DNA of 64,000 nt from an uncultured Acidobacteriota bacterium (GCA_963843575.1 CAWJKZ010000015.1:192001-256000), one strand, 5' to 3'; shown: positions 10,342-46,801, counted from the first letter of the stretch. Notes: generated by a model not told the origin, from the letters alone. A program made the numbers and translations.

Positions 10342-10381
10342 GGAACTTCGAGGTTCTTCGAGGCCTTCGGGTTTTGGTCTT

Positions 10382-22362: not shown

Positions 22363-23304
22363 ATGGTCGAGCGGCGGCGGGTTCTCGGACGGACAGGGTT
22401 ATCGGTTCTCGATGTCGGCTTTGGCGCCTGGGCCATTGGAGGGGATAGGTCCGGCTGGGGCTATGGCCCTACCGACGATCGAACATCTTTGAGGGCTGCC
22501 GAAGCAGCACTCGATCAGGGATGCAATTTTTTTGATACTGCCGACTGGTACGGGCACGGACACAGCGAGGTTTTGCTGGGGAAGGCGCTCAATTCCAGAC
22601 GCTCCGACGCGGTCATTGCCACCAAGGGGGGACTTGACTTCTACCACGGATCAGTGGGCGCAAATTTCCACCCCGCATACCTTCGCTTTGCACTCCACCA
22701 GAGCCTTCGACGCCTGCAGACCGACCATGTTGATGTTTATCAGCTTCATAATCCGCCGCCTGAGATAATCCACAGTTCGACGGTCGTCGACGAACTGAAA
22801 CGTTTGCAGAGCCAAGGCAAAATCCGCTGGCTCGGGATCTCGGCTGCTACAGTCCAAGACGGACTATCTGCCATCGACGCCCTTTGGCCGGACACCATTC
22901 AGATTGCGTATAACATGTTGGCTCCCCAGGCCGCAGCGACGCTTTTCCCCTTGGCCGATGCTCGCGGGGTTGGAGTGATCGCCAGGGAGCCACTGGCCAA
23001 CGGCTTTCTATCGGGGAAATACGGAGTGAACGCGTCTTTCCCGCCGAGCGACATCCGCAGCCATTGGCCTCCCGAGGTCCTCTGGGATGTCGTGAATCGG
23101 GTGCAGATGCTTGCGCCCTATTGCCGGCCGGGAGAAACGATGGCTCAACTGGCCATCCGTTTTGCGCTCGAACCACGTGCTGTGTCCGTGGTGGTCTGTG
23201 GCTGCAAGACTCCTGAGCATGTTGCAGAAAACTTTCGTCAAACCTCAGTCCATACTCAAGCCACTATGAAATCTACGCTGATGAACCGGGAGGTACCGTT
23301 ATGA
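22363..23304 (+). CDS. aldo/keto reductase (first gene of the putative RiPP operon)
   Basis: GFGAWAIGG, FFDTADWYG.GHSE, IATKGG, SLRRLQTDHVDVYQLHNP motifs; ATGA overlap with the next gene. Confidence 0.92.
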   Translation: MVERRRVLGRTGLSVLDVGFGAWAIGGDRSGWGYGPTDDRTSLRAAEAALDQGCNFFDTADWYGHGHSEVLLGKALNSRRSDAVIATKGGLDFYHGSVGANFHPAYLRFALHQSLRRLQTDHVDVYQLHNPPPEIIHSSTVVDELKRLQSQGKIRWLGISAATVQDGLSAIDALWPDTIQIAYNMLAPQAAATLFPLADARGVGVIAREPLANGFLSGKYGVNASFPPSDIRSHWPPEVLWDVVNRVQMLAPYCRPGETMAQLAIRFALEPRAVSVVVCGCKTPEHVAENFRQTSVHTQATMKSTLMNREVPL

Positions 23305-23738
23305 ACGAAACTACGGCCCAACAATCGGCTGGAACATGGGGAAGCCCTGGGGCGTCGCCACAAATGGCGAGCCCGTGCAACATTGCCTCCCTCGCGCCGT
23401 TTCCCCCAATGCTGCAGGAGGCGGTCATGCAAACGGTCCTGGAGGCCAAGTGCGAAAGGGCCACTGATATCTGGTACGACGACGAGGCCAACAAGTCCCT
23501 CGTTGTCATGCGTCTCGGCGTCCAATGGCAGTTGAACGAGACGGCGAGGGCGCTCTGGCTCCGTCTCGGGAAGCGCGTGGGAGAAATCGTCGATGAATTA
23601 AGTAAGGAATACCCCGGCACGGATTCTCAGCAGATCAAATATCTCACCGTTGAGTTCGTTCTGAACGCGACCTCGCACGGGATTGTTGATCTTGTCTCGG
23701 AGCCGCCTGGAGAAAAGGCCAAGAAGAAGCAGTCTTAG
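23301..23738 (+). CDS. PqqD-family stand-alone RiPP recognition element (RRE)
   Basis: LNETARALW...VGEIVDELSKEY..D..I...VEFV..A..HGIV matches the PqqD winged-helix pattern; ~40-aa low-complexity N-terminal extension. Confidence 0.8.
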   Translation: MNETTAQQSAGTWGSPGASPQMASPCNIASLAPFPPMLQEAVMQTVLEAKCERATDIWYDDEANKSLVVMRLGVQWQLNETARALWLRLGKRVGEIVDELSKEYPGTDSQQIKYLTVEFVLNATSHGIVDLVSEPPGEKAKKKQS

Positions 23739-23842
23739 GCGCAACTCGGTTCGTGAACTGTCCGGATCCCCCCCCGCCCCCCCCATGAAGGAACCGTTTC
23801 ATCCCGTGGTTCTCTTCACGTCCGTGGCTATCAGGAATCAAC

Positions 23843-25330
23843 ATGCAACGACACACGATCGACCAGTCCACGTGTTTTGTCCCGTGGCCAACGAACGGGC
23901 GAACAGCCGGGAATGGCGCGATCAGAATCCGGTTGTTTCAACGCGTGGTTGCTCCGTGGACTCAGCCCACCGCCGTCTGGGAGTTCGGACCGCTCACCGG
24001 CTCCGTGGAGGGATTGGATATCTCCTTATGGCGATTCGACCTCCGTTCGATGCGTCTGCGCAGCAGTCAAGGCACGTGCCTGGCTCATACGTTTAGCGAG
24101 GCGAAAAATCTCGATTTTTCGGAACGTATGGTGCTTGAAGTATCGTCATCGACGGTCGGGGGGGCGGGATGGTCTCAATTCGAGGTGGATCTGTTTGTGC
24201 CGCCGGACGAGCTTGATGGGATGAAACGCCGGCTCCGGCTCAGCCGGGTCCCCCCGATCGAATGGTTTTTTGTTGAGCTGACCAACCGATGCAATTTCCG
24301 GTGTGCCTGGTGTCCCAGCGTAAAGATGGCGCGGGGACGCGGCGCCATGCCGCTGGCTCGAGCCAAGGTCTTAATGGAGGAGATCGCCGCCTATCGACGG
24401 CGCCATCCTCTGTTCTCCCTATACGCACAGATCCAGAATCCGGTGTTCCTGCACGTCATGGGCGAGCCTCTCCTGCACCCCGATTTTTTTGAAATCGTCC
24501 GACACGGCCAGGATCTCGGACTGAACTTCTGCCTGGTCACCAATGCGAGCCTCATCAAAGGGGAGATGGTTCGCCGGCTGCTGGAAAGCAACTTGAATTC
24601 GATCGTCCTGAGCCTCAACGCTCCGGACGAGGCCTCCTTCTCTCAAGCGCGTGCCCCCCTTTCGTACGGCCGTCTGGTTGCACAGGTTCAGGAGCTTGTG
24701 CGGGAGCGGTATCGGCGCGGCAGCACGCTTCCGCGCCTGGAGCTTCAACTCATCAATTCCAAACGGGTCCGCTGGTCGGCCTTCCCCCTGGTGGACGAAC
24801 CTGAGCAGGTGGCGCGGCAACTCGTGTTCTGGTCGGATTTCGTGCAGTCGCTGGAGAAAGCGAGCGGTGTCATCTCCTGTGGGCTCGAACCCGCCGAGGC
24901 AGCGCGCTGGCAGACCGTCCTGGAGCGCGAGACCAACGATCGGGGCATCTACTTCGAACTGGGACTGAACCTGTCGCTGACTTTCAAGCTGGCCTGCAAC
25001 TTCGGCAACGAGCTGTTGCCGGACCACCTGAAGGTGCTTGAGACCTCCAGCGGGGTCTGCCACTTCAGGAACGCCTATCGGACGTTTTGCGTGTTCTGGG
25101 ACGGCTCTTGTACTTTTTGTTCGCTTGATTACGACAACGAAGTCAATCTGGGCAATGTCTTTGAACAAGGCATCGATGCGATCTGGACAGGTGAGAGTCT
25201 CACCCGAATCCGCGGTCTGGCCGAACACGGCGTTCTGGCCGAACCGCTGTGTCGCCGTTGCATGGGCACCCTGGTGCCGAGCCGAGTCGCTCGAGAGCCA
25301 TCCGTCCCGAAGGGAGACATCCATGGCTGA
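23843..25330 (+). CDS. radical SAM enzyme with C-terminal twitch/SPASM-like domain and unknown N-terminal domain
   Basis: ELTNRCNFRCAWC, GEPLLHP, TN; C-terminal C..VFWDGSCTFC..D...LGNV...IW...CRRC. Confidence 0.88.
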   Translation: MQRHTIDQSTCFVPWPTNGRTAGNGAIRIRLFQRVVAPWTQPTAVWEFGPLTGSVEGLDISLWRFDLRSMRLRSSQGTCLAHTFSEAKNLDFSERMVLEVSSSTVGGAGWSQFEVDLFVPPDELDGMKRRLRLSRVPPIEWFFVELTNRCNFRCAWCPSVKMARGRGAMPLARAKVLMEEIAAYRRRHPLFSLYAQIQNPVFLHVMGEPLLHPDFFEIVRHGQDLGLNFCLVTNASLIKGEMVRRLLESNLNSIVLSLNAPDEASFSQARAPLSYGRLVAQVQELVRERYRRGSTLPRLELQLINSKRVRWSAFPLVDEPEQVARQLVFWSDFVQSLEKASGVISCGLEPAEAARWQTVLERETNDRGIYFELGLNLSLTFKLACNFGNELLPDHLKVLETSSGVCHFRNAYRTFCVFWDGSCTFCSLDYDNEVNLGNVFEQGIDAIWTGESLTRIRGLAEHGVLAEPLCRRCMGTLVPSRVAREPSVPKGDIHG

Positions 25331-26606
25331 AGTGCTGCTGATCAATCCACCGATGTGGTCCCCAAAAGCCCACAGCTCTTTCACGGGGCTGTGCCCGCCC
25401 TTGGGTCTCGGGTATCTCGCCGCCTGCCTCCAACGGGAGGGCATCGGCGTCGATATTCTGGATTTGGACGTCAGTCCGGATCCTGATGCGGAACTGCGAC
25501 AGGCGTTTGCCCATCGGGCGCCTCGCTTGGTGGGCATTACCAGCCTTACGCAGAACCACTTCCTCGCCTTGCATGTGGCGCGGGCCGTAAAGGCCATGAA
25601 CAGCAAGACCCTGGTCGCCATCGGCGGTCCCCACGTTTCCTACCGTTGGGACGAGGCATTGGCACAACCCGCCATCGACGTCGTCGTGCTCTTTGAGGGT
25701 GAACGCACAATTGTCGAACTCTACCGGCAGGCGCAGCAGGAACAACCGGATTGGAGCGGCATTGCCGGCATCGCCTACCGGAATGGGGGGCATAATGAGC
25801 TGACTTCTCCCAGACCCCGCGAGCAAGAACTGGACCGCATCCCGCATCCGGCGCGCCATCTGCTGCCGATGGGCCGTTACGGAAGGCCCGGCACGATCAT
25901 GACCAGCCGCGGCTGTCCGATGAAGTGCATTTTCTGCATCTCCAGTACCTACGAGGGATGCTACCGCCCGCGCAGCGCGGATGACGTCGTCGAAGAACTC
26001 ACAGTGCTCCGGCACACCTGGGGCCTGCGGGAAGTCTACCTGTTGGACAATGTCTTCACAGTCGACAGTGCCCGGGTACAGAGCATCTGTGCGCAGATTA
26101 TCGAACGGAAACTCGGCATCCGGTTTCACTGTGTGTCACGGGCGGATTACATGACCGAGGAGCTCGCTCGCTGCCTCAAGGCCGCCGGATGCGAACGCAT
26201 CGAGATCGGTGTGGAATCGGGGTCGCAGGAAATCATCGAGGCTTTGAAAAAGCACATTACCCTGGAGCAGGTGTTTCGAGCCGCAGACCTCGTCCTGGGC
26301 GCGGGCATGCAGCCCATGTTCACCTTTCAGATCGGTTCTCCCTTCGAGACCGCCGCCTCACTGGAAAAGACCCATCAGCTCGCGGCTGACTTGCGCTCCA
26401 AAGGGGCCATCACCTTCTTCTCAGTCATGACCCCTTATCCGGGAACGCCCTTCGCTGAACGTGCGGAGGAACTCGGGGTCGTGATCCGAGCGAAGGACTG
26501 GCGGGAGTTCCGGACATCCAACCCTATATGCGACATGCGCTATCTGAATTGCAACAGTTTGCGTCAGGCTTTATACAGGGAATTTCCCCTGCTGCAAGAC
26601 CGCTAG
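25323..26606 (+). CDS. cobalamin-binding radical SAM enzyme (class B methyltransferase-like)
   Basis: PPLGLGYLAA, GGPH, EGE (B12 domain); TSRGCPMKCIFC; GVESG; TPYPGT; ATG 25323 after GGGAG. Confidence 0.92.
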   Translation: MAEVLLINPPMWSPKAHSSFTGLCPPLGLGYLAACLQREGIGVDILDLDVSPDPDAELRQAFAHRAPRLVGITSLTQNHFLALHVARAVKAMNSKTLVAIGGPHVSYRWDEALAQPAIDVVVLFEGERTIVELYRQAQQEQPDWSGIAGIAYRNGGHNELTSPRPREQELDRIPHPARHLLPMGRYGRPGTIMTSRGCPMKCIFCISSTYEGCYRPRSADDVVEELTVLRHTWGLREVYLLDNVFTVDSARVQSICAQIIERKLGIRFHCVSRADYMTEELARCLKAAGCERIEIGVESGSQEIIEALKKHITLEQVFRAADLVLGAGMQPMFTFQIGSPFETAASLEKTHQLAADLRSKGAITFFSVMTPYPGTPFAERAEELGVVIRAKDWREFRTSNPICDMRYLNCNSLRQALYREFPLLQDR

Positions 26607-27704
26607 ATGCGGTCAATACCGCGAGGCACACCCACCGTGACCGGGCCAAGACAGGGCGAAGCCCCGGGATCTCCAGACCACCTTTACCTCGAGATCACGG
26701 ATCGCTGTAATCTCGGGTGCAAGCACTGCTATCTGGGGGCGCACCCCGGCGGCAGGCACATGATGCAGGGCCGGGCTGTGCGCGCAGCGCTGTCGGACTT
26801 TGCCGCCATGGGCGGTCGCACCGTTTCGTTCAGCGGTGGTGAACCGCTGTTGCATCCCGAGTGGAAATCGTTGCTGGCACACGCGGCTCGGCTCGGCCTC
26901 GGGTGCACGTTGATCACGAACGGCACCATGCTCGACAAGGAGGCGATTGACGCCTCGGTGCGTCTGGGCGCGAGGATTGCGCTAAGTATCGACGGGAGTC
27001 AGGCCGCGACCCACGACGCGATTCGGGGCCGCGGGAACTTCGCGCGGGTCCAGACGGCTCTGAAGAATCTCGGGGCGATTGGAGCACAAGGGCAGGTGAT
27101 TGTCTGCTTCACACCCATGAGACGGAATCTGAACGATTTAATTCCTTTGGCCAAAGCGCTCCACCGGGACGGATTTCATCAGCTCTACGTGTCCCTCCTG
27201 GAAGATCGTGGCCGGAAACGAGCCCACGATCGGGAGCTGTCGCTGGACACTGGGGAGCGGGTTCGTTTGTTGACCCAGTTGGTCCTCTTGCTCACCGACC
27301 CGAGCCTGGCAATGCACGTGGATACAGGCCATCTGACGTATTTTTTTGAGCGCCTCCTGGGAAAACCGGATGGGCTCGGCGACCCGATTGAGGGAACCTT
27401 GCGTGTGGCCCCTACGGGCCAAGTCTACCTGAGCGCGTATGTGGATGATGAGGCATTCCGTTTGGGAAGTCTGCAGGAAGCAAACCTGCGGGAGTGCTTC
27501 CTGTCGGAGCGCGTCCGTGTCCTTTATGCGCAAGCCAGAGAACGGCAGGACGGTCTGCCGGCATGTCGCGATTGCCCGCACTGGATCGTGTGTGGTGGTG
27601 GCAGCCCCGCTCGCGCGTATGCGAACAACGGCTGTTTGTCCACCCCGGACGAATTCTGCGAGGCTAAACGTATCTTTCTGGAGCGATGGTACCGTGCAGT
27701 GTGA
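26607..27704 (+). CDS. radical SAM/SPASM-type peptide maturase (degenerate SPASM)
   Basis: EITDRCNLGCKHC, SGGEPLL, TNG, SIDG..HDAIRG.G; C-terminal CRDC.....CGGGS...C......FC. Confidence 0.88.
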   Translation: MRSIPRGTPTVTGPRQGEAPGSPDHLYLEITDRCNLGCKHCYLGAHPGGRHMMQGRAVRAALSDFAAMGGRTVSFSGGEPLLHPEWKSLLAHAARLGLGCTLITNGTMLDKEAIDASVRLGARIALSIDGSQAATHDAIRGRGNFARVQTALKNLGAIGAQGQVIVCFTPMRRNLNDLIPLAKALHRDGFHQLYVSLLEDRGRKRAHDRELSLDTGERVRLLTQLVLLLTDPSLAMHVDTGHLTYFFERLLGKPDGLGDPIEGTLRVAPTGQVYLSAYVDDEAFRLGSLQEANLRECFLSERVRVLYAQARERQDGLPACRDCPHWIVCGGGSPARAYANNGCLSTPDEFCEAKRIFLERWYRAV

Positions 27705-27869
27705 AAGCTGCAGGTACCGCGCCCGGTAAGTTGCTTTAAAAAGTTCAGGGATGCCCATGCGTGCTGTGCACCCCGTGTCTGAGGCAGCCTCCCGGAGGGA
27801 GCATTTATTTCCAATACAAGTCGGAGGCGGCCGGTATCTCCAAACCATAACCGAGGAGAGGAGTTTGTC

Positions 27870-28859
27870 ATGACCGACGAACAACGGATATTCGTACCAC
27901 CGAGTGCCACGGGTTTGACCGCAATGAATCCGGCAGGCGGTGTCCGCATGGGCTACGCCATGGGCGGGGCTCAGAGGATGGCACCCATGATGGGTGGCGT
28001 CCGCATGGGCTACCCCATGGGCGGAACTCAAATGATGTCCCCTATGATGGGTGGTGTGCGCATGGGCTACCCGGCCGTCATGGGATACGTAATGGACGTG
28101 TCGGGCGGTGCGGGCATGATGCCGCGCATGGGAGGAGTCCGCATGGGCTACCCGATGGGCGGTACTCAGATGATGTCCCCCATGATGGGAGGAGTCCGCA
28201 TGGGCTATCCCATGGGCGGTGCTCAGATGATGTCCCCCATGATGGGTGGTGTGCGTATGGGCTACCCATCCGTCATGGGATATGGCGCCGGTGCCGACGT
28301 GACAGGCGGCGCGCGCATGGGAGGAGTCCGCATGGGCTATCCCATGGGCGGTACTCAGATGATGTCCCCCACAATGGGGGGAGTCCGCATGGGCTATCCC
28401 ATGGGCGGTTCTCAAATGATGGCGCCCTCGATGGGTGGCGTGCGCATGGGATACCCTGCCGTCATGGGATATGGCGCCGGCGCGGACGTGACGGGCGGCG
28501 CGCGCATGGGAGGAGTCCGCATGGGCTACCCCACCATGGGCGGTACTCAGATGATGTCCCCCACCATGGGAGGAGTCCGCATGGGCTACCCCATGGGCGG
28601 TTCTCAAATGATGGCGCCCTCGATGGGTGGCGTGCGCATGGGATACCCTGCCGTCATGGGATATGGCGCCGACGTGAACGTGGCGGGCGGCGCGGGCATG
28701 GGAGGAGGCGGTTCTCAGATGATGTCACCCATGATGGGAGGAGTCCGCATGGGCTACCCCATGGGCGGTTCTCAGATGATGTCACCCATGATGGGAGGAG
28801 TCCGCATGGGCTACCCCATGGGCACGCAGCAAATGGGTAGTTTCCGAATGGGAATGTAG
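27870..28859 (+). CDS. Met/Gly-rich tandem-repeat protein; putative multicore RiPP precursor (14 x GGVRMGY)
   Basis: Strong GAGGAGAGGAG RBS; 22-aa unique N-terminus then 14 invariant GGVRMGY motifs; synonymous codon variation between repeats; located directly after the RRE and three radical SAM genes. Confidence 0.85.
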   Translation: MTDEQRIFVPPSATGLTAMNPAGGVRMGYAMGGAQRMAPMMGGVRMGYPMGGTQMMSPMMGGVRMGYPAVMGYVMDVSGGAGMMPRMGGVRMGYPMGGTQMMSPMMGGVRMGYPMGGAQMMSPMMGGVRMGYPSVMGYGAGADVTGGARMGGVRMGYPMGGTQMMSPTMGGVRMGYPMGGSQMMAPSMGGVRMGYPAVMGYGAGADVTGGARMGGVRMGYPTMGGTQMMSPTMGGVRMGYPMGGSQMMAPSMGGVRMGYPAVMGYGADVNVAGGAGMGGGGSQMMSPMMGGVRMGYPMGGSQMMSPMMGGVRMGYPMGTQQMGSFRMGM

Positions 28860-28865
28860 CAACCA

Positions 28866-28893
28866 CTCACCCTCTCCTTCGGGAGAGGGTGAG
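28866..28893 (+). terminator. perfect 12-bp hairpin with cUUCGg loop after the repeat gene (terminator or mRNA stabiliser)
   Basis: CTCACCCTCTCC-TTCG-GGAGAGGGTGAG; only a weak U-tract follows. Confidence 0.6.
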
Positions 28894-29029
28894 ATTCTCA
28901 CATGGCACATCGCAGTGTCGCACCATCGCGTTTCGTCGGCATGAAACCTCGAGGTAACTCCTCAGGCGTATCGAGTGTTGGGTTAGAGAACCAAGGTGCC
29001 TCACCCGGGAACAAGCGAGGCGCAATTCC

Positions 29030-29815
29030 ATGACGACCCTGTGCCTCCATTCAAAGCCTGAAATGGAGGCCTTTCTCCGCCACAATACCTACTTGCATCT
29101 TTATGAGATCGGTGACCTGGACGACTTCTTCTGGCCGCGGACCCTATGGTATGGCCTGAAGGACAGAGGCCAGATTACCCAACTCGTCTTACTTTACACT
29201 GGAGCATCTCCTCCCGCCTTGCTTGGTTTCACCGAGGGGCCCATAGAGGAAATGGCAGAGTTGCTGCGATCTATCATCCCTCTTCTCCCCAAACGTTTTC
29301 TTGCTCATCTCAGTCTGAATCTGGCGGCGGTATTTGCAGACGACTACCAAATCCAATCGCACGGCACGTTCCATAAGATGGCGCTGACCCGCCCCTCATG
29401 CCTGGAAGGAGTGGACACGTCTGCAGTCGACTCTATGACGCTGTCCGACATCGATGATCTACAAAGGCTCTACCGCGCAAGCTATCCGGGGAATTGGTTC
29501 GATCCGCGGATGGTCGGGACTGGCTACTTCTATGGCATACACCGCGATACCGAGCTTGTGAGCGTCGCCGGGGTGCATGTATACTCCGCACATTACAGAA
29601 TCGCCGCGTTAGGCAGCGTAACAACACACCCGAACTATTGCAAACAGGGCTTGGCAACTGCAGTTTGTGCCAAACTCACCAAGTCGTTGATGGGGAGTGT
29701 GGAACATATCGGGCTGAACGTGGAAGCCGGCAACGCGAGCGCCATACGTTTGTATGAGAAACTCGGATTTGAAGGTGTCGCTGCGTATGGAGAGTATGCC
29801 TTCGAGTGGAAGTGA
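29030..29815 (+). CDS. GNAT family N-acetyltransferase (FR47-like C-terminal domain)
   Basis: VSVAGVH, LGSVTTHPNYCKQGLA, LNV..GNASAIRLYEKLGF motifs. Confidence 0.9.
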   Translation: MTTLCLHSKPEMEAFLRHNTYLHLYEIGDLDDFFWPRTLWYGLKDRGQITQLVLLYTGASPPALLGFTEGPIEEMAELLRSIIPLLPKRFLAHLSLNLAAVFADDYQIQSHGTFHKMALTRPSCLEGVDTSAVDSMTLSDIDDLQRLYRASYPGNWFDPRMVGTGYFYGIHRDTELVSVAGVHVYSAHYRIAALGSVTTHPNYCKQGLATAVCAKLTKSLMGSVEHIGLNVEAGNASAIRLYEKLGFEGVAAYGEYAFEWK

Positions 29816-29863
29816 ATGACCCGACGGCGGCAATTACGAAATCGATTCAGACCACGGCTGTGA

Positions 29864-30100
29864 CCGTGGTCGGAGGGGAATCTTGGAAACACGGCCTGGC
29901 GGCGAGCCCGGAGCAGCGGCGAGCAGCTGGCGCAAGGACGGATTGAGCTGTTGCTCGCGACCCGAGCCACCACAAGTGCGGCGGTACGCATTTTCCTCGG
30001 GAATGGCGGTGCGCCGGATTTACGAACGGCTAACCGCGCCATGATCCTCGACTGGGCGAAGACAAACGGAGTCGAGCATGAGGAATTGAGCGCCAATTAA
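29864..30100 (+). pseudogene. start-less gene remnant, possibly ankyrin-repeat C-terminus
   Basis: Open frame ...LLLAT....AAVRIFLGNGGAPDLRTANRAMILDWAKTNG...* with no good start or RBS. Confidence 0.3.
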
Positions 30101-30420
30101 AACGGCAAAGAGCATTGGTCGTGCCTGATCGTGGAATCGATTATCGGATGTTTTCTAGCATCCTCAGATCGGTGCCTCCAGTATCAAGCTGCGAATACAG
30201 AAGGGTGCCTCAGGCGAGGCAGAAAGCCCGTACTGGGAATACCTCGGGAGGGGAGCGACAGTCTTCACCTTTCCGGTCGAGACACGGGCGTGCAGGCGGA
30301 GTTGTCACGAGAACTTAAGGCCGCGATCATCTCCTGCGGAGATGGAAGATCGGCATGCGCTCGCCGAACTGAAAGAGTCGCCGGGAGGTTCGGCTACCAT
30401 GATAGTGGTGCAGGGAAATC

Positions 30421-31254
30421 TCACTCCTGACGCCTCGAGGCAATAGCGTAGAGGGTTGCCTTCAGCTCAAAGGGGGTCAGATAGGGGTGCTTGGAGAGAA
30501 CCAGCGACACAATGCCTGAGATGTGCGGTGCGGCGAAGCTGGTGCCGGTAACCGTCTTATAACCGCCGCCCGCCCAGGGCGCACGAATATTGGTGCCGGG
30601 AGCGGCTAACTCGATTCGATTCCCGTAACGATAGGCGAAGGTGAACGAGTCGCCCCCCTGCAAGTTTCCGACCGAGATCAGAGACGAGAAGATGGATGGG
30701 AAACTCGGAGGGGGGACGTTGTTGGCCGCCGCCACGAGAATTGAGCGGCCGAAATAGGCAAGATCCGTCAGCTCATGCAACTGGGAGAAGTACTCCTCCC
30801 TCGTTGTGCCCAAGCTGAGGTTGACCACGTCCATTCTGTTCTCAATGGCCCAACGAAGGCCCAGGAGAAAAGCCTCACCGGTTCCGCCGCAGGACGGGCC
30901 GAGGACTTTGACGCTGAACAGTTCCACGTCAGGCGCGATGCCCTTGATGATGCCGGCACACGCCGTGCCGTGCCCAAAAGCATCGGTAAAACTGCAGGGA
31001 AGCAGTTGGGGCCCCGACGGAGTCATCCACACATCTACGCCCCCCTTCACGCTGCCCGTGATGTCCGGATGGGAGGCGTCGATGCCGCTGTCGACAACCG
31101 CCACTCTGATACCTCTTCCCGTGGAGTCTCCCCAGGCATTCTCAGGAGCCGCGAGTCGGGAAATGGGCCCATCGAGCCTCGAGTACACACTGCCCGAGTT
31201 CGCCGGCTGATGTCCCTGAAACCTCTGATTGCCTGTTGTGCCTCTGAGGGGCAT
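30421..31254 (-). CDS. S8 subtilisin-like serine peptidase, no signal peptide
   Basis: Catalytic triad motifs VAVVDSG, GHGTACAG and GTSFAAPH; NLSLG. Confidence 0.93.
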   Translation of the reverse strand: MPLRGTTGNQRFQGHQPANSGSVYSRLDGPISRLAAPENAWGDSTGRGIRVAVVDSGIDASHPDITGSVKGGVDVWMTPSGPQLLPCSFTDAFGHGTACAGIIKGIAPDVELFSVKVLGPSCGGTGEAFLLGLRWAIENRMDVVNLSLGTTREEYFSQLHELTDLAYFGRSILVAAANNVPPPSFPSIFSSLISVGNLQGGDSFTFAYRYGNRIELAAPGTNIRAPWAGGGYKTVTGTSFAAPHISGIVSLVLSKHPYLTPFELKATLYAIASRRQE

Positions 31255-31266
31255 GGGTTGGGCTTT

Positions 31267-32604
31267 CTACCTTCTCAATGAGCCGCCGAGACTCAGGGGG
31301 CGGAACTCCAATCGCGCGTGAACCGCATTCAGGATGTCGAGGCACAGCTGCGCATCTTGCGGCCTTCGTGTGACAATGCTGACGATCCTGGTCGCAATCT
31401 CTAACGCCATCCTGTACTCGTGTGAGGCGCTAGCCCTTTCGAGACCTGAAGCCATCGCCGCCACCACCTCCCGTGAGCCGGGGACGATATCCGTTGCCCC
31501 CAACCTCTCCTTGGCCGCTGCCAGCAACGACTGCCCTAGCAAGAACATATGGCGCTTCTCCACAGCCGCTCCCACGATCGTGGCGAACTGTGTGAGAAGC
31601 TCCATATCCTGCTCGGAAAAACCCCCTCCACCGACTTTGTTCACAGTCTCCAGGACGCCTAACACGCTGGATCCGGAAACTATCGGCACAGCAAGGATGG
31701 AGTGGGTTGCAAACTGAATGGCCTCGGAAATGGACCGGTTCCACTGTGCGTTTTCCGCCAGATCTTGCACGTTCAGTGGCTGGCCGCTGGCCACCACAAA
31801 GCCAGCGATGCCCTGGCCAATCGCCACTTTGAAGTGTTTTAATTCATCCGCCTTCTCTCCATGAACGGCAGAGAAGACAAGTTGGGTCCCGGTTTCGTCG
31901 AGGAGGAGGATCGATCCGCCCTCCGCCTCGACGGAGACCGTGGCCACGCTGATAATGGTATCCAGAAGTTCCTCTGATTCCGGGGATGGCTTGAGCATTC
32001 CCATGACATCCAGGACTTTGAAACAATCCAGGCCTGTTCCCGCCTTGTCCGCCAGGGAGTCAGATGCCTTTCTCAGATTCTCCAGTTCATTCAGGGTGGA
32101 GCGTAAGACCTCTTCGAGGGCTTGGATGCGATCATGCAGCTCTTGCGAGTCACCGTAGGCCATTTGCGTATTCCTCCATGCCGGTTCCGTCTGACTGCCG
32201 ACGGGTCGAAGCACAGCCTGTTCGAATCGATAATCGACCGCCGGCGACACAGTGACTATGAACGATCGCAGATCATCCACAACGGACAGGCAGTGACCGC
32301 AGGCTGACAGATGATCCACCACGGTTCGCAGGGTTTCACCAGACAGCGTTCCGTCAACGTAGTCCGATATGATCCCAATCCCCGGATGGTTCGCCGGCGC
32401 GTCGGGAGAGCCCGCTTCTGTTGCTGCGTCAAAAACTTCCGATCGAATCGCAAGCCACAGCGCATCCGCGCCGATGGCTCTTTCCACCTGGGCCCGGCAG
32501 ACTTCGCACACGGCGATATGGTCTGAAAGCGGCAGCAATTCCGCCACAGAGGGGCTTTGCCGGCAGTACTTCTCAATTTGAGTTTCTGCAAGATGCTCGG
32601 ACAA
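31267..32604 (-). CDS. fusion of two zf-HC2-like anti-sigma motifs, a coiled coil and a GAF domain
   Basis: HIAVCEVC and HLSACGHC; GAF motifs GQGIAGFV..SGQP, SILAVP, GVLETVNK..F...D..LL; internal GGAGG plus ATG at 32163. Confidence 0.8.
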   Translation of the reverse strand: MSEHLAETQIEKYCRQSPSVAELLPLSDHIAVCEVCRAQVERAIGADALWLAIRSEVFDAATEAGSPDAPANHPGIGIISDYVDGTLSGETLRTVVDHLSACGHCLSVVDDLRSFIVTVSPAVDYRFEQAVLRPVGSQTEPAWRNTQMAYGDSQELHDRIQALEEVLRSTLNELENLRKASDSLADKAGTGLDCFKVLDVMGMLKPSPESEELLDTIISVATVSVEAEGGSILLLDETGTQLVFSAVHGEKADELKHFKVAIGQGIAGFVVASGQPLNVQDLAENAQWNRSISEAIQFATHSILAVPIVSGSSVLGVLETVNKVGGGGFSEQDMELLTQFATIVGAAVEKRHMFLLGQSLLAAAKERLGATDIVPGSREVVAAMASGLERASASHEYRMALEIATRIVSIVTRRPQDAQLCLDILNAVHARLEFRPLSLGGSLRR

Positions 32605-34124: not shown

Positions 34125-34661
34125 CTATGCTCCCCACGGGCGCCGCAGCATCTCCTCAAAACGCGTTCCGGCGATGGAGATGTTGCTCAGCAGGTGCGGC
34201 GCCAGCTCATCGGGGTCCTCCGTTAGAGATTGCTCCCGCTGCACCGGCTCAACGCCGAGGCTTCCGAGGGTGGTCCGCAGGCGGTCCGCCAGAAACACCG
34301 CAAGCGACTGATAGAAGCGTGCGGCAAAACCCACATCATCCTGCAGTTTCTCCAGCAGCACGCCCCTAGGAATCGCCCCGACCCACGATTGCAGTTCGGC
34401 GCGCACGCTGGCGGTCGGCGGGCGGGAATCGACGAAGGAGACTTCTCCGATGACGTCGCCGGCTTTCAAAACAGCCAGTCTCGGTGCGGTCGTTGTATAG
34501 ACAACGAACGCGCCGTCCAAAACGAAGTAAAGCCAATCTGTCGGTTTTCCCTGCTGGATCAGCACCGTTCCTGCCGGCACTGCAATCCTGCTGCCGTTGC
34601 GGATCATCCAATCAATGTCGGGATCGTTCAGGATGCCGAGAAAATAGAGTGCCTTTCTCAT
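34125..34661 (-). CDS. cyclic nucleotide-binding protein of the bacteriocin (NHLM) transport-accessory type
   Basis: LGILNDPDIDWM, LIQQG...LYFVLDG, GEVSFVD.RPPTASV, FAARFY motifs; directly after the NHLM ABC pair. Confidence 0.85.
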   Translation of the reverse strand: MRKALYFLGILNDPDIDWMIRNGSRIAVPAGTVLIQQGKPTDWLYFVLDGAFVVYTTTAPRLAVLKAGDVIGEVSFVDSRPPTASVRAELQSWVGAIPRGVLLEKLQDDVGFAARFYQSLAVFLADRLRTTLGSLGVEPVQREQSLTEDPDELAPHLLSNISIAGTRFEEMLRRPWGA

Positions 34662-34706
34662 CGCCCCCCCACGTCGTGGCCAAAATCCTTCCGAGTACCT
34701 GAATTC

Positions 34707-37601: not shown

Positions 37602-37643
37602 AGTGTTTTTGAGAAATCCGTGTGTGGAAACGAACGCGAAACT

Positions 37644-39800
37644 TCAGTTAGCTCCCATGAGTCTGGCGTAAGTGCCGCGTTTCCTGATCAAATCCCGATG
37701 GGTGCCGCGCTCGACGATTTTTCCGGCGTCGAGGACGAGGATTTCATCACAGTCACGGATCGTACTGAGCCGGTGGGCGACAATCAGGCAAGTGCAACCG
37801 CGCCGCCGGATCGCGTCGTCGACGCGCTTTTCGGTAATCGGATCCAGCGCGCTCGTCGCCTCATCGAGCACCAGAAGCCGCGGATTGCCCGCGAGAGCCC
37901 GGGCGATCTCGAGCCGCTGCCGTTGTCCTCCGCTGAAATTCCTGCCCTGCTCTTCTATCCGGTAATCGTAACCGCCCGGCCGGTCGGCAATATCGTCATG
38001 GATGCAGGCGTCCTGGGCGGCCTGAATGACCGTCGGTTCCTCCAGTGTGTCGTCCCAGAGCGTCAGATTGCTTCGGATCGCCCCCTCGAACAACGCCGGG
38101 TCCTGATCTACCACTCCGATCGAGTTATTCATCACCTCGCGGGGAAGTTCGTCGCGCTTCTTGCCATCAAAAAGAATCTCGCCACTCCACGGCTCATAAA
38201 GCCCGGAGACAAGCTTGGCCACCGTTGATTTTCCGCTCCCGGACGCTCCGACGACGGCTACCCTTTGCCCGGGCTTGAGCTTCAGGTTGAAATCCGAAAT
38301 CAAGGGTGGCTCGAGCCGGCTGTAGCCGAACGCGACCTGCCGCATGTCCAGAGAGCCCTCGAGCTTCTGTGCCGGATCTCCGCTGACTTGAGTGTTGAGC
38401 AGCCTCTGTTCCGGATAGCGGAGCACGTCGTCGAGGCGGTTCATATCCCCGTGTGCTTCCTGGAGTTTCCCTCCCAATTGAACCAACCCGTTGACGGGTT
38501 CGGTGAAGCTGGCTGCCAGCGTCTGAAAAGCGATCAACATCCCGATCGTCAGCACACCATCAATCACCCGGATCCCCCCCAACCCGATTATGGTCACAGC
38601 GTAGAACGACATCAACAGCGGAGAACCCGCGGAGAGAAACTGTGCCGACACGGCGAGCTCCTGCTCGGCTCCGACGAGCTTAGCCTGGTGACCTGCCCAG
38701 TTGGCGAAAAACTCCGATTCGGTTCCCGTGGCCTTCAGGCTCTCAATCCCTGTCAACCCATCCATCGAGGCCGCCATCAGTTTGCCTCGCCCCTGCAGCA
38801 GCTTCCGGTTGGAGTCCCGCCGTTTTTTCGCGATGAACTGCAGGAACAGGAGGTTGGCCACGGCGATGGCGATGGCCACCAGCGTAAGCACAGTGTCGTA
38901 CTGGAACATAAGTGCAGCAAAGAAACCGATCATCACGAGATTGACCAGGTTGGTCGCCAGACCGCCGGACAGCAAGGCCGCCACGGTATCGTTCAGCTCG
39001 ACTCGTGATGCGATCTCGCCGCTGTAGCGCTGGGCAAAGAATTCGATCGGCAACCGCAATACGTGCCACAGGAATCGACTCGAGGGCCCGAGCGCGAGCT
39101 TCATTTCCAGGCGTAGCAGCCCCTGCTGTTGCAGGTAGGTGAGTCCCGCCCGGAGCACTGCGGCAACACTCATGGCCAGCAGCAACGGCTGCAGCCACGC
39201 GCGCGCCCCACCCACCATGATGTTGTCGACAAAGATCTTGAAAAAGACCGGGATCACGATTCCCGGCACGACCAATGCCAGTGTGGCCAAAACGACGTAG
39301 GCTAGGGCGAGCCGGCTGCCTGGAAGGCGCGCGGCGAGGGCCTTGAGAATGCTGGGGCGCGCCCCTCCCTTCCTGAACGCGGGGGTTAGCTGGAAGGCCA
39401 TGACAAAGCCGGTAAACGACTCGTCGAATTCCGCATCGGAAACCGCACGCGGCCCTTCGGCGGGATCGTTAAGGTACACTTTGCCGCGCTTGAAACCCTC
39501 CACCACCAGAAAGTGGTTGAAGTTCCAGAAAACGATCATGGGCAAAGGCATGTCGCGGAGTTGCGCCGGCTCCTTCGTGTATCCGTTGCCCGCTAGTCCA
39601 TAGGACTGGGCAGCCTGAAGCATGTTGAGGGCTTTGCTCCCGTCCCTGGAAACGCCGCAGGCCACGCGCAGTTCTTCGAGAGGCACGTGCCGGCCGTAGT
39701 AGCCGAGGACCATTCCCAGAGATGCCGCACCACACTCCGTTGCTTCCATCTGAATAGTGGTAGGGGTCCTGACACGCCGGCGCCGGAAAATCTTGTACAT
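37644..39800 (-). CDS. NHLM/NHLP bacteriocin ABC transporter with C39 peptidase domain
   Basis: [17 protein letters not shown] (catalytic Cys), WNFNHFLVV (His), NDP; GASGSGKST; FSGGQRQR. Confidence 0.95.
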
Positions 39801-39952
39801 ATTCAATGCTCTCTAAGGGAAGCGGACACGGGACAGCCACGGAATTCGCTCTTGCGAATGAGCCAAAGCTGGAAGTGTCCGAGCGAATACGATGGCTGTC
39901 CCCAAATCGCACCCACGGACAAACACTGACGTACACGGATCAACCGCGCCGA

Positions 39953-41209
39953 TTACCTTAGGCCGAGCTTCTCTTTCATGTACGGAAACACCAGAGTGAC
40001 CGGACGTTGTTTCCTGGTCACGATCTCCCCCTGACACAGAGCGCCGCCGCTCAGCTTGATCGGTGCGCCTTGCGCGGAGGACCAACGATACCCGGTGGGC
40101 GTCGATGGATCCGCCTGCATCTCGACATGAACTTCCGTGACCGGGCCCCCGGAAATAAGCGTCCTGACCAGTGGCGCATTTTCGAAGATTCTCATCAGCG
40201 CCTCTTCAGTCGCCGGATAGTCGGCGATGAAGGTGACCTTGCCGCGAATGTAGCCGAACTCCTCGCGTCTCACTTCGGTGGGCGAGATCTCGGCATCCAT
40301 CTCAGGCTGGACTTCTTTGGCCCTCGCGGCGGGTGTGAACAGCACCGCTTCGAGCTTGACGACGTCGGGTTGCAGGCTGATTACGGGTGTGCCTACCTGA
40401 ACCAGGCTGCCGGGTGAAACTTGCACCTCAACCACCTGTCCGGCGTAGGGCGTAACCACCTTCGATTGCATCTCGAGTTCCTTCTGCAGGACCTGCAATT
40501 CGCGATTGAACTCCGCGATTCGGTTGTCTGACTGCAGGTTGGCCTCCAGGCTTTCGTTGCGCGTCTGAAACTCCATAGAATCCAGCTGGGTGATCTGAGC
40601 GTGCCGGGACCCAATGTTGCTCTGAATACCCACAAGTTTCTCACGCGTCAGATAGGTTTGCTGCTTTGTGATAAGCCCTTTGGACAGAAGTTCTTCGTCG
40701 ACCGGGATCTGCTCCTGGACCAGCTTCGCCTGGTGCTGCAGATCGGAAATCTCTTGCTCCAGATTCGAGCGTTGGCGCGCCAGGAAGGCAAGCTGCAAAC
40801 GGCTGCGGTCCGCCCGGACGTTGAGTAACTCGTTTCGCTGTCTGGTTGCCTCCGTCAATTGGCTTTCCACAACACGAATCTGCTCGAGCAGGGAGGGCTG
40901 GGCGATGGTCCCAATCACCTGGCCCGCCGTGATGTGATCTCCGACATGTACACTCAGATCGGTAACTCGTCCAGTGCCGAGCGGGACCACACTCTGTACG
41001 CCTCCGGAGCGTATGAGCACGCCGTTGCCGGCAACCTTCGTTGTGACCTGTCCCATGTAACCCCATCCCACACTCACGCCGATCAAGGCGACCAGTGCGG
41101 CGAGCGCCAGCCAGTTTTTGGGGTTGGTCACGTGAAGCAGGCGATCGAGTTGTTCCGGTGAGGACAGCCGTTCCAGGGCGACCTTTCTGAAAACAGTCGG
41201 TGAACTCAT
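39953..41209 (-). CDS. NHLM bacteriocin secretion membrane fusion protein (HlyD family)
   Basis: FRKVALERLSSPEQLD.LL.VT, V.REEFGYIRG.V, TPTGYRWSS.QG motifs; ATG 41209. Confidence 0.93.
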   Translation of the reverse strand: MSSPTVFRKVALERLSSPEQLDRLLHVTNPKNWLALAALVALIGVSVGWGYMGQVTTKVAGNGVLIRSGGVQSVVPLGTGRVTDLSVHVGDHITAGQVIGTIAQPSLLEQIRVVESQLTEATRQRNELLNVRADRSRLQLAFLARQRSNLEQEISDLQHQAKLVQEQIPVDEELLSKGLITKQQTYLTREKLVGIQSNIGSRHAQITQLDSMEFQTRNESLEANLQSDNRIAEFNRELQVLQKELEMQSKVVTPYAGQVVEVQVSPGSLVQVGTPVISLQPDVVKLEAVLFTPAARAKEVQPEMDAEISPTEVRREEFGYIRGKVTFIADYPATEEALMRIFENAPLVRTLISGGPVTEVHVEMQADPSTPTGYRWSSAQGAPIKLSGGALCQGEIVTRKQRPVTLVFPYMKEKLGLR

Positions 41210-41420
41210 AGTTCCCTTACAAAGGACAAAGACTGCCACGGATTACACGGCCCGGCCAAGGGCCGCAACCAGTAAATTGGACGCGGATTCCCGTGGAAGA
41301 ACGCGGATTGTACTCGGGCGCGTCCATCCGCTTAAATCCGTGAAATCGTTTAAGATCCGCGTTCCGCTTTTGTTTTTTCATCCGTAGCTGCTTTGATCTT
41401 ACAGACATGGCTTCAGTACC

Positions 41421-42983
41421 TCAGTTCGACGAGGAATCCTGAAACGGGACGGTGAAGAACAAATCTCGATCGACTGATTGTACGTCCCGATCCGGAGCCA
41501 CCAAGGTCCCTGTCGCGAATCGGAACTCGGTCAGTGCCACCGCATACGCTTGTTGGGCGGTCACAAGGTCCAGCAGCGCAGACGTCAGACGGCTTTCAAT
41601 CGTAAGGAGGTCGGTGAGCGAACCCGCACCCAGGCGCAATTTGTCCTTTTCGCCCTGCAGCGCGGCCTCGAAGCCACTGACAGACTCGCGAGCTTGCTTG
41701 AGTCGGCTCATACTGTTCGATACGGCTGCGGCCGTGCTCGGGACTGCACTCGCGATGGCTCGCTCTTTGTCGGAACGCAGCAATACGGTCTCCTGGTACG
41801 AAGCCTCCGCCTCGGCCACTTTGCCTAAGGCAAAGTTGTTCACTCGAGGGAACGAATAGCGCAGACCAAAGACAAAATCAGGACCGCGGCTGCGCGTAAA
41901 AGGCGAGATCAGGAATTCATCCGGGCGACGGCCCTCCTGCAACGCCGAGTAGCCGCCGCTCATCGTCAAATCCAGCTGCGGCAAAAGATTATTCCGGGCG
42001 GGTTTGCGCAGTGTGTCTGCTTCTTCCCTGCGCGACTCGGCGGCGAACAGGTCGGCCCTGCGCTGGAGCGCCTGCTCCACGTAGAATCTGAGACTTTCCG
42101 GCGAAGTAGAGGGAGGCTTCTGCTTCGCGTCATCAGGAAAGGCATCCGAGGGGGCCGGTAAATCCATACGTTGCACGTCCGTCAAGCCCATCGCCAATGC
42201 CAGACGGTAGCGTGAGTCGACGACCTGCTGTTCTGCCAGGATTCGATCGGACGCCCGGGCCGCGAGATTCGCCTGCACCTGATAGATTTCGCTGCGTGGA
42301 ATCTTGTCTGCCCGTATCAGGACACCCACATTCTCGACGAATTCCCTTCCGCGCGCCTCGGACCCGGTGATGATCTCCAATCGCTTCAGCGAAGCGACGT
42401 AGTCCCAATAGTTCGTCGCGGTGGCTACAATGAGTTCGGCAGCGGTCTGGTTGAGATCGTACTGGCTGGCCTGAACCGCGAATCCGGCTGAACTCTCCAG
42501 CGCTGTCACGATTTCTCTTCCTCGGCCGCGCCGGAGCGGCAGAGTCACATCGAGGCTCAAGCGCGCTCGGTTGGTCCCGTCCCGGATCTGCAGATTATCC
42601 GTCGTTCGGATGATTTCGAATCGCGGCCCGATCACTACACCCGAACGAAGCAGACGCGCGGTGCCGGTACTGAGTGTCGTCAGATTCAGTGCCTGGTTGT
42701 CGATGTTGAAGCCCGATTGCTGGGCGAATAGACGTTCCGCTTCCGTCATCGGGCTGTTGCTGCGCTTCTGATCCGCCGACCATTGCAGCTGAGTATCAAA
42801 GTCGCCGCTGCGCTGCTGTCGAATAGCCCGGCCGAGCTCAACCTGCTGCTGTTGCACTCGCAACTGCGGGTGCAATCGCAAGGTGGACTGGACGGCCTCG
42901 AGCAAACCCAAGCCCGCGCGATCGTTCTGAGGTGGAGCAATCAGGAGGGGAAACAGCAACCAGACATGCCCGAACTGACCCAT
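41421..42983 (-). CDS. TolC-family outer membrane efflux protein
   Basis: Signal-like N-terminus, LPQLDL, E..KL.LG.GS..DLL...RL..A......A...Y......FR.ATG pattern. Confidence 0.85.
   Translation of the reverse strand: MGQFGHVWLLFPLLIAPPQNDRAGLGLLEAVQSTLRLHPQLRVQQQQVELGRAIRQQRSGDFDTQLQWSADQKRSNSPMTEAERLFAQQSGFNIDNQALNLTTLSTGTARLLRSGVVIGPRFEIIRTTDNLQIRDGTNRARLSLDVTLPLRRGRGREIVTALESSAGFAVQASQYDLNQTAAELIVATATNYWDYVASLKRLEIITGSEARGREFVENVGVLIRADKIPRSEIYQVQANLAARASDRILAEQQVVDSRYRLALAMGLTDVQRMDLPAPSDAFPDDAKQKPPSTSPESLRFYVEQALQRRADLFAAESRREEADTLRKPARNNLLPQLDLTMSGGYSALQEGRRPDEFLISPFTRSRGPDFVFGLRYSFPRVNNFALGKVAEAEASYQETVLLRSDKERAIASAVPSTAAAVSNSMSRLKQARESVSGFEAALQGEKDKLRLGAGSLTDLLTIESRLTSALLDLVTAQQAYAVALTEFRFATGTLVAPDRDVQSVDRDLFFTVPFQDSSSN

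Positions 42984-46724: not shown

Positions 46725-46801
<77 letters not shown>

Follow-up and report, generated by a model that had tools for sequence, protein, structure and literature searches.

The 64,000-nucleotide stretch of DNA from an uncultured Acidobacteriota bacterium (GCA_963843575.1, CAWJKZ010000015.1:192001-256000; the window in the following) carries a horizontally acquired gene island of the type responsible for ribosomally synthesised peptides with post-translational modifications (RiPPs). Its key gene encodes a repeat protein of 329 amino acids and is accompanied by genes for an aldo/keto reductase (AKR), a PqqD-like RiPP recognition element (RRE), three radical S-adenosylmethionine (rSAM) enzymes, namely rSAM1, a B12-binding rSAM (B12-rSAM) and rSAM3, and an acetyltransferase, and it faces an export and regulation block of the NHLM type on the opposite strand (Table 1). 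Judged by its sequence, the repeat protein is probably the precursor of a hitherto undescribed RRE/rSAM pathway. This reading is carried by the coding frame of the repeat gene, by a family of precursors with the same leader and core, by an enzyme cassette of five domains that recurs in a second phylum and by tandem repeats in two related operons. The RiPP family is a real one, probably new, and of a known general kind, the repeat-core rSAM RiPPs.

The repeat gene and its family of probable precursors

All coordinates are 1-based and refer to the whole window, and gene calls were derived from a map of open reading frames (ORFs) combined with Pfam and NCBIfam domain scans. An earlier sequence-only reading of this DNA had named the genes of the island, and every one of them was found in its place by the ORF map and the two sets of domain models. 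It had also described a Met/Gly-rich ORF with 14 repeats, and exactly 14 copies of GGVRMGY were counted. Units of 57 nucleotides are nested in a super-repeat of 189 nucleotides; one unit corresponds to 19 amino acids with an invariant core of six residues. Met makes up 23% and Gly 26% of the protein, from which Cys, Trp, His and Lys are absent.

The plus frame was identified as coding because its GC content at third codon positions (GC3, 0.733) equals that of the neighboring genes, because variable columns within the eight canonical 57-nucleotide units are distributed 4/2/9 over codon positions 1/2/3 (9 of 15 in third positions), and because synonymous and non-synonymous codon differences amount to 100:67 in this frame, compared with 27:140 in antisense. 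This latter ratio and a lower GC3 rule out coding for a His-rich antisense ORF of 489 amino acids (27138-28607, minus strand), which runs into rSAM3. The antisense ORF is an artefact of ATG/CAT complementarity and could mislead gene callers.

Signals of an operon comprise overlapping or abutting genes, a strong Shine-Dalgarno sequence before the precursor gene and a hairpin behind it. The junctions at 23301, 25323 and 26607 had been read as overlapping or abutting, which could be specified: AKR and PqqD genes share four nucleotides, rSAM1 and B12-rSAM genes share eight, and the B12-rSAM gene directly abuts that of rSAM3. The hairpin has a minimum free energy of -25.2 kcal/mol (z -4.19), a value equalled or beaten by none of 200 shuffled sequences, and no T-run follows it. 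In the genome the repeat gene is present as a single copy. When 5.8 billion protein clusters were searched with a word index, not even the repeat protein itself was among the matches, and it appears to be absent from this collection.

Relatives of the repeat protein were searched exhaustively with HMMER among 1.84 billion representative sequences, which resulted in 11 matches at E <=0.001. Six of these were inspected (P0124, P0127, P0128, P0132 and P0133 were left out). P0125, P0129, P0130, P0131 and P0134 were rejected as unrelated low-complexity repeat proteins. P0126 (MCU0286875.1), a protein of 86 amino acids from a metagenome-assembled genome (MAG) named Acidobacteria bacterium by NCBI, is a true relative, and a search with P0126 led to P0137 (64 amino acids) and P0138 (55 amino acids). 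All four proteins have a common leader, M-x-(D/E)-E-x-x-FVPP(S/V)A-x-G...N-x-G-(G/A), in which M1, E4, F8, V9, P10, P11, A13, G15, N20 and G23 are invariant, followed by 3, 4, at least 4 and 14 copies of VRMGYP across the family. The spacers between these units are unrelated (AGA, SGWERINPQFGA, MGGTQMMSPMMGG), and it is therefore the leader and the hexapeptide that are conserved and not the richness in Met and Gly. Each VRMGYP unit is preceded by GG or GA; C39 peptidases cut after the GG or GA of double-glycine leaders. Such a combination, in which leader and core are kept, spacers vary freely and the copy number ranges from 3 to 14, is at the sequence level what RiPP precursors with multiple cores look like. 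A precursor with a conserved leader and a core of variable copy number, adjacent to the modifying enzymes, is what is generally expected of an rSAM RiPP system, and it was found here.

The enzymes of the operon and related loci

The operon combines a PqqD-like RRE with an rSAM/SPASM maturase, as do RRE-dependent rSAM RiPP systems in general. The domain assignment had to be corrected in one point: the sequence-only reading had placed a twitch domain on the first and a SPASM domain on the third rSAM enzyme, whereas Pfam finds SPASM on rSAM1 (E 1.7e-10) and none on rSAM3. rSAM1 has the CX3CX2C motif at residues 150/154/157 and eight Cys residues in its C-terminal part; its N-terminal 140 or so amino acids have no Pfam match, and an ESM Atlas search led to generic rSAM/SPASM clusters only. 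The ORF listed for B12-rSAM begins at 25038, and the ATG at 25323 yields a typical N-terminus. Its best NCBIfam matches, both below cut-off, are BchE (151 bits) and ApyD (149 bits). All three rSAM enzymes are far in sequence from solved structures.

rSAM3 belongs to a rare family. Among the 5.8 billion clusters, 24 full-length relatives with 45-76% identity, one partial relative and seven with 34-41% identity were detected, almost all of them metagenomic. Besides CX3CX2C, the family has five invariant Cys residues, which fits one or two auxiliary clusters. An AlphaFold model of rSAM3 (32 sequences, pLDDT 92.9) gave the peptide-modifying SPASM enzymes CteB, anSME, ChlB, SkfB, SuiB and PqqE as the best-matching folds.

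Some further observations concern motifs and domains of the enzymes. LFVPPDE in rSAM1 (residues 117-123, window positions 24191-24211) was considered as a mimic of the leader's IFVPPSA and rejected: it is not kept in the Rhizobium homolog described below, and the likeness is probably due to chance. In all six reading frames of the window together, FVPP is encoded only four times. The N-terminal extension of the PqqD-like protein (23301-23495) holds SPQMASP, resembling QMMSP in the window's spacers and NMAMSP in the Rhizobium repeat, and may have been left over from an ancestor in which repeats and PqqD were fused. Three more loci with PqqD domains are present in the genome (C25:204063-204263, C13:281052-281225 and C10:132716-132880), which probably contains other RRE-dependent clusters.

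Three other loci with full context and a gene of the rSAM3 family could be detected. One of them (L192) is located on plasmid pRapFH23a of Rhizobium acidisoli FH23 (NZ_CP034999.1) and was found by a tblastn search of plasmids. The other two, L197 and L199, derive from genomes G1192 and G1349; in a sample of the GTDB order of a Hyphomicrobiales MAG one of 401 genomes was positive (G1192), and in its family two of 132 (G1192 and G1349); a second draw of 373 genomes at the level of the order, apparently a repeat of the first, added none. The sequence-only reading had named as a counter-argument the case that repeat ORFs are never found together with related rSAM operons. This is contradicted by L192 and L197, which carry tandem repeats; L199 has a non-repeat ORF of 55 amino acids.

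The Rhizobium plasmid contains the cassette in the gene order of the window: AKR, PqqD-like domain, rSAM1 (33% identity, 9031-10467), B12-rSAM (42%, 10484-11986) and rSAM3 (33%), the last with 415.8 bits to the rSAM3 family profile; the five-domain cassette is present in a second phylum. Its AKR and PqqD-like domains form one annotated ORF in frame, and the PqqD-like protein of the window is 26% identical to the C-terminal part. Between the two domains, and in frame with them, lie 12 perfect repeats of 42 nucleotides encoding MAMSPRGAFAVTPN, which are preceded by a degenerate unit containing PRMGF. A Shine-Dalgarno-like AGGAAAGAGGAAAG and, behind it, an internal ATG (position 8026 of L192) are found just upstream of the repeats, from which the repeat-PqqD protein could also be made separately. 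Behind the cassette follow genes for an Fe-S cluster assembly accessory protein, a CYTH-domain protein and pyroglutamyl peptidase I (13028-13339, plus strand; 14048-14737, minus strand), and remnants of insertion sequences lie upstream of it. A plasmid of Clostridium estertheticum gave a match (H4) with 31% identity to the Rhizobium B12-rSAM as query.

In G1192 a PqqD gene is followed by a PqqD-fused rSAM3 ortholog (369 bits) and, 106 nucleotides downstream of the rSAM gene, by a repeat ORF of 187 amino acids with its own GAGGAGG site. The ORF is composed of 34 five-residue units (12 MRGAP, eight MRGMA, five MRATA, five MRSPA and others) with 24% Met. This reading frame is supported by synonymous variation, as one and the same peptide is written in up to five DNA versions; HprK-like genes and an AKR gene adjoin. 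The 55-amino-acid ORF of G1349, with a YEPPKV leader and a KFPARGFSG end, precedes genes for PqqD, the rSAM3 ortholog, an HprK-like protein and a B12-rSAM. By sequence, two of the three loci are operons with Met/Arg-rich tandem repeats and one has a putative single-core precursor. A string of the form R-(M)-G-(Y/F) recurs as VRMGY, PRMGF/PRGAF and ARGF, with just MRG in G1192, which is suggestive. The earlier proposal that the GGVRMGY polyprotein is the substrate is supported by the precursor family with its leader and VRMGYP core and by the repeats in L192 and L197.

Scans of sequence collections with the rSAM3 alignment were dominated by generic rSAM patterns. The sole rSAM3 ortholog among the matches listed, with 59% identity, is encoded on a metagenome contig of 5.5 kb (L084), where a full-length homolog of the acetyltransferase (29% identity, E 9e-26) adjoins it. 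In a 391-genome sample of the phylum Acidobacteriota, nine distant PqqD-fused relatives of rSAM3 and no ortholog were found. Together with G1192 and G1349, five of these nine genomes (L164, L165, L166, L168 and L172) extend the comparison of leaders: the ORF that immediately precedes the PqqD/rSAM genes contains a [FY]xPP motif, namely YEPPKV (G1349), YTPPRI (G1192), YVPPTV (L172) and YEPPLI (L166), or one of the variants YEPA (L164), YESP (L165) and YTRP (L168). FVPPSA of the window has the same place relative to the precursor's N-terminus. From its conservation, FVPPSA/[FY]xPP is a putative RRE-binding element of the wider enzyme family. A predicted complex of the RRE with precursor residues 1-62 scored 0.32, compared with a mark of 0.34 and with 0.00 for the controls.

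The small ORFs which precede the PqqD-fused rSAM/SPASM genes in these five Acidobacteriota genomes (L164:835-1014; L165:2877-3095, minus strand; L166:2888-3217, minus strand; L168:980-1186; L172:867-1031) have peculiarities of their own. Their leader reads Y-x-P-P-x-(I/V)-T-x-Y-(S/T)-S-x-E-I-(L/I)-E, their core GPAxxCSxxPC, and they match no NCBIfam model. In L164 and L168 the gene of an HprK-related kinase follows. These peptides apparently represent another, uncharacterised family of Cys-containing RiPPs.

Several findings weigh against the repeat protein as precursor of a distinct RiPP pathway. The Rhizobium repeats lie inside an annotated enzyme ORF, where they could be a linker, and they are 100% identical in DNA, hence permit no selection test. 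The G1192 repeat ORF is devoid of the [FY]xPP leader, which is found in a separate upstream ORF, and the candidate precursor of G1349 is non-repetitive. The R-(M)-G-(Y/F) strings are short, of low complexity and without statistics behind them. In L084 the rSAM3 ortholog is a fragment at the contig end, with the first 57 residues missing and no cassette upstream. The contigs of P0126, P0137 and P0138 (9020, 2604 and 4239 bp) match in length none of those listed for rSAM3 homologs, so that a VRMGYP precursor beside this enzyme family is seen in the window only. None of the three rSAM enzymes reaches any NCBIfam cut-off, and no reaction can therefore be assigned by homology. Finally, tblastn detected NHLM genes in none of L192, L197 and L199 over about 10-12 kb to either side of the rSAM gene.

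Some of these points would also suit a different role of the repeat protein, namely that of a Met-rich, disordered protein which is no substrate at all, for instance a binder of Cu(I) or oxidants, with the true substrate being an unrecognised small ORF or encoded elsewhere. Met-rich motifs bind Cu(I), and the high proportions of Met and Gly, MxxM-like strings and the distribution of the leader motif in G1192 would be in line with this. However, leader and VRMGYP core are kept in relatives of 55-86 amino acids whose spacers are not rich in Met, no other candidate precursor was found among 52 ORFs compared with NCBIfam across 18.6-49.4 kb of the window, and no signal peptide is apparent by eye in the repeat protein. 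We consider such a role very unlikely.

The export block and the borders of the island

The biosynthetic operon on the plus strand and the export and regulation block on the minus strand are convergent and separated by a gap of 600 bp. A lower GC content of the whole block had been noticed before and is borne out by values of 0.57-0.61 over 22-42 kb versus 0.62-0.69 in the outer flanks (1-22 and 48-64 kb); next to the island, values of 0.63, 0.61 and 0.55 were obtained between 42 and 48 kb. GC3 is 0.62-0.75 in the genes of the cluster and 0.78-0.87 in the majority of the likely flank genes. The flanks carry housekeeping genes, e.g., for prolyl-tRNA synthetase and ketol-acid reductoisomerase. 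The acquired island may extend as far as the Doc/Fic toxin gene and tRNA-Arg(CCT) at 46180-46801; no integrase was seen.

The distribution of rSAM3 in close kin was limited to the genome itself. In 41 relatives (E 1e-20) its own genome and one match with 27% identity were the only results, and an ortholog was present in one of 137 genomes of a class sample and in one of 401 genomes of a phylum sample, in both cases the window's own. That the family is not seen in close kin fits horizontal acquisition.

Other observations concern the intergenic regions. A repeat of about 60 nucleotides occurs three times (41322-41382, 44653-44713 and 47024-47083; 68-100% identity to the reference), with one copy between the HlyD and TolC-like genes, and a match to the Rfam nhaA-I riboswitch was found at 47272-47326 on the plus strand (50.4 bits, gathering score 37). 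For positions 22300-30400 no sequencing run, RNA included, is listed.

Table 1. Genes and sequence elements of the island and its far edge, with coordinates in the window.
Feature	Coordinates	Strand	Basis
Aldo/keto reductase, first gene of the operon	22363-23304	+	PF00248, E 7e-55
PqqD-like RRE, N-terminal extension of 65 amino acids	23301-23738	+	PF05402, 34.8 bits (cut-off 23.4)
rSAM1, radical SAM/SPASM enzyme	23843-25330	+	PF04055 and PF13186
B12-binding radical SAM enzyme	25323-26606	+	PF02310 and PF04055
rSAM3, peptide-maturase-like radical SAM enzyme	26607-27704	+	PF04055; rare family
Shine-Dalgarno-like GAGGAGAGGAG	27853-27863	+	Read from sequence; 6 nucleotides 5' of the precursor ATG
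Precursor candidate, 329 amino acids, 14 GGVRMGY repeats	27870-28859	+	Repeat count, coding-frame tests
Putative leader, 24 amino acids, MTDEQRIFVPPSATGLTAMNPAGG, Gly-Gly end	27870-27941	+	Alignment with P0126, P0137 and P0138
Perfect 12-bp hairpin with TTCG loop	28866-28893	+	Directly past the precursor stop codon
Two-domain GNAT acetyltransferase	29030-29815	+	PF00583 and PF12746
Short, subtilisin-like S8 protease	30421-31254	-	PF00082, E 1e-37; Asp55, His95 and Ser239 motifs
zf-HC2 anti-sigma-like and GAF protein	31267-32604	-	PF13490 and PF13185
Sigma-70/ECF-like protein (weak match)	32730-33803	-	PF04542, E 0.003; TIGR02937, 41.4 bits (cut-off 42.9)
Cyclic nucleotide (cNMP)-binding protein, bacteriocin-transport-associated type	34125-34661	-	PF00027; TIGR03896, 127.8 bits (cut-off 161)
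NHLM ABC2 permease/ATPase, N-terminal extension of 277 amino acids	34707-37601	-	TIGR03797, 918.9 bits (cut-off 709.4)
NHLM ABC1, C39 peptidase/ABC exporter	37644-39806	-	TIGR03796, 1057.8 bits (cut-off 853.3)
NHLM HlyD adaptor	39953-41239	-	TIGR03794, 324.6 bits (cut-off 156.2)
TolC-like outer-membrane channel	41421-42983	-	PF02321, E 7e-25
Doc/Fic-family toxin ORF	46180-46632	+	Adjoins tRNA-Arg(CCT); lowest GC of the window (0.548)
tRNA-Arg(CCT)	46725-46801	-	

Within the export block, the C39 domain of ABC1 keeps the catalytic residues Cys25, His98 and Asp114, and this ABC1 is the single one of the NHLM type above cut-off in the genome. The cNMP-binding protein matches the second half of the TIGR03896 model. 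The N-terminus of the S8 protease does not resemble a signal peptide by eye; the enzyme might act intracellularly in trimming or releasing the units. Leaders of the NHLP or Nif11 type had not been seen in the window before, and none was detected when the 52 ORFs of 18.6-49.4 kb, among them 36 small intergenic ones from 27.7 to 43.2 kb, were compared with the NCBIfam models. The Nif11 leader model (TIGR03798) had no match in the genome, which is 88% complete; the genome search for NHLP (TIGR03793) was likewise without match, but its control matched in no genome and this search is uninformative. Because a single NHLM ABC1 above cut-off is present, no Nif11 or NHLP leader was found among the ORFs around the cluster and the precursor's leader ends with Gly-Gly, the repeat protein would be the most economical cargo of the NHLM exporter, a link which we infer for this genome only.

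It is conceivable that the biosynthetic operon and the NHLM block are independent modules which became neighbors, the exporter handling a different peptide. Their convergent orientation with the gap between them and the cassettes of L192, L197 and L199, which have no NHLM genes nearby, point in this direction. Both blocks, however, have the same lowered GC3, unlike the flanks, no Nif11 leader was found in the genome and no Nif11 or NHLP leader among the small ORFs of the window, and the repeat precursor offers a Gly-Gly site. Independent modules are therefore regarded as unlikely, and export of the repeat product by the NHLM system is kept as the preferred assumption.

Comparison with known systems and proposed pathway

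The closest parallels in principle are systems in which one rSAM/SPASM enzyme acts repeatedly on a precursor of short repeats, as TvgA/TvgB and TigB/TigE with TVGG and TIGSVS motifs, respectively, and formation of poly-cyclopropylglycine (PMC9062424, PMC10878394). The repeated motifs of these precursors contain a conserved Val or Ile, and peptidase/transporter genes belong to the clusters. The GYW motif, which ligates auxiliary cluster I, is strictly conserved in the cyclopropylglycine synthases and defines them (PMC10878394). In contrast, it is absent from rSAM1, rSAM3 and B12-rSAM of the window, and TigE (8vpo) ranks only 28th among the structural matches of the rSAM3 model. Furthermore, the Tvg and Tig clusters are described with a single rSAM and with neither a B12-rSAM, an AKR nor a separate PqqD, and the window differs by its 19-residue unit with an invariant core of six.

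For the Wpr system, consisting of WprA, WprB and WprC, an aromatic-to-Arg C-C cross-link at each of several repeated three-residue motifs is reported (PMC11851443). A repeat precursor, an rSAM enzyme, a small chaperone- or RRE-like partner and a serine protease are features which, in that description, both systems have in common. The S9 serine protease WprP is said to cut the modified WprA precursor uniformly. Compared by description only, Wpr differs by three Trp-Pro-Arg repeats instead of 14 R-M-G-Y motifs, and no AKR, B12-rSAM, second rSAM or NHLM exporter is described for it. The WgkB model (NF050035) is matched by rSAM3 with 73 bits at a cut-off of 650.

With the NHLP/Nif11 systems such as proteusins, the island has in common the ABC1 (C39), ABC2 and HlyD proteins above the NHLM cut-offs, the cNMP-binding protein alongside and B12-rSAM and rSAM enzymes in the same island. 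It is distinguished from them by its leader of 24 amino acids with FVPPSA, with no NHLP or Nif11 leader among the small ORFs, and its B12-rSAM reaches 102.2 bits on TIGR03975, the model of the proteusin C-methyltransferase (cut-off 281.85). The GRRM system, a Gly-rich repeat protein (TIGR04260) with an rSAM/SPASM enzyme (TIGR04261), is a curated pairing that is not known to have been characterised. TIGR04260 misses the repeat ORF, and neither model has a match in the cluster; six matches to TIGR04261 in the genome are on other contigs and all below cut-off.

A stand-alone PqqD-type RRE with an rSAM/SPASM enzyme and a Tyr-containing peptide is also typical of mycofactocin and PQQ. This raises the question whether the product of the cassette is a cofactor or redox mediator that is derived from a peptide and stays in the cell, with the repeats supplying copies of the V/R/M/G/Y motif, the AKR as partner oxidoreductase and the exporter serving something else. 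Beyond the common layout, MftC is second among the NCBIfam matches of rSAM3 (101.2 bits, E 6e-29, tied with StsB), AKR and RRE are fused in Rhizobium, whose operon continues with an Fe-S assembly protein and not with a transporter, and there is no exporter nearby in the three other loci. On the other hand, the cut-off of the MftC model (265) is far from reached by rSAM3 as well as by rSAM1 (34.9 bits), the same holds for PqqE, which is outside the 25 best NCBIfam matches of rSAM3, and the precursor is unrelated, with neither a C-terminal GVY nor an E-x3-Y motif. The Gly-Gly end of the leader stands beside the genome's only NHLM C39 exporter in the same low-GC3 island, and a precursor with 14 cores, an S8 protease and a GNAT acetyltransferase are more like a natural-product pathway. 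A cofactor pathway thus appears quite improbable, and a repeat-core RiPP is the interpretation we retain.

The sequence-only reading had not recognised the combination of precursor and enzymes as a described class, and indeed it is covered by no curated family and by none of the papers searched. Literature searches for VRMGY, RMGYP, FVPPSA and GGVRMGY gave one irrelevant and no relevant match, and no literature was found on GRRM with radical SAM; among the papers listed for an aldo/keto reductase with PqqD, B12 and rSAM RiPPs, none mentions the reductase. A compendium reportedly covering about 15,000 RiPP-associated rSAM enzymes (PMC10288494) could already list this enzyme family. Leader, RRE, rSAM enzymes, repeated core, protease and exporter follow a familiar logic. 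Unfamiliar are the precursor family, the conserved cassette of AKR, RRE and three rSAM enzymes and the in-frame fusion of repeats and RRE in Rhizobium.

From these comparisons we infer the enzymatic steps with their order, the sites of cleavage and what the exporter does as follows. The N-terminal 24 residues would serve as leader, with FVPPSA recognised by the PqqD-like RRE, which would present the 14 VRMGYP units to the radical SAM enzymes. rSAM3 would be the conserved partner of the core, rSAM1 and B12-rSAM would act as tailoring enzymes, and the AKR might act on the RRE-bound peptide. The GNAT enzyme could acetylate an amine of the product or serve self-protection. The C39 domain would cut after the Gly-Gly of the leader and possibly after the Gly-Gly before every VRMGY, release of the units may be assisted by the S8 protease, and the product would leave the cell via ABC1/ABC2, HlyD and TolC. 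If one were to guess at the core reaction, we would favour cross-linking of side chains or a C-H functionalisation within R-(M)-G-(Y/F); by analogy to the WPR system an Arg-aromatic link is a candidate, proposed with low confidence.

More speculative, and in our estimation rather doubtful, is the far-reaching view that the cassette of AKR, RRE, rSAM, B12-rSAM and rSAM defines a new RiPP class with iterative tailoring of tandem-repeat cores of the R-(M)-G-(Y/F) type, rich in Arg, Met and Gly, by a chemistry unseen in RiPPs, e.g., a radical cross-link followed by carbonyl reduction, and that in R. acidisoli the substrate repeats are enclosed in a cis fusion by reductase and recognition domain. 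To our knowledge, there is no precedent for a substrate fused in cis between a reductase and a recognition element.

New peptide chemistry continues to emerge from radical SAM RiPPs, and it would be worth looking for in this family, where a strictly conserved hexapeptide is paired with a reductase and three rSAM enzymes. The lack of Cys, Trp, His and Lys in this hexapeptide excludes the usual thioether and Trp-based cross-links, and any product should be chemically new. The 14-fold repetition would multiply any mass shift and make it easier to detect. Precursors of this kind may be routinely missed by gene callers, since the repeat protein was not returned from the large cluster collection despite a phmmer match to itself with E 1.6e-183, and this may be the reason why the family went unnoticed. 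With the copy on the plasmid of Rhizobium acidisoli, a cultured and non-pathogenic strain, a tractable host is at hand.

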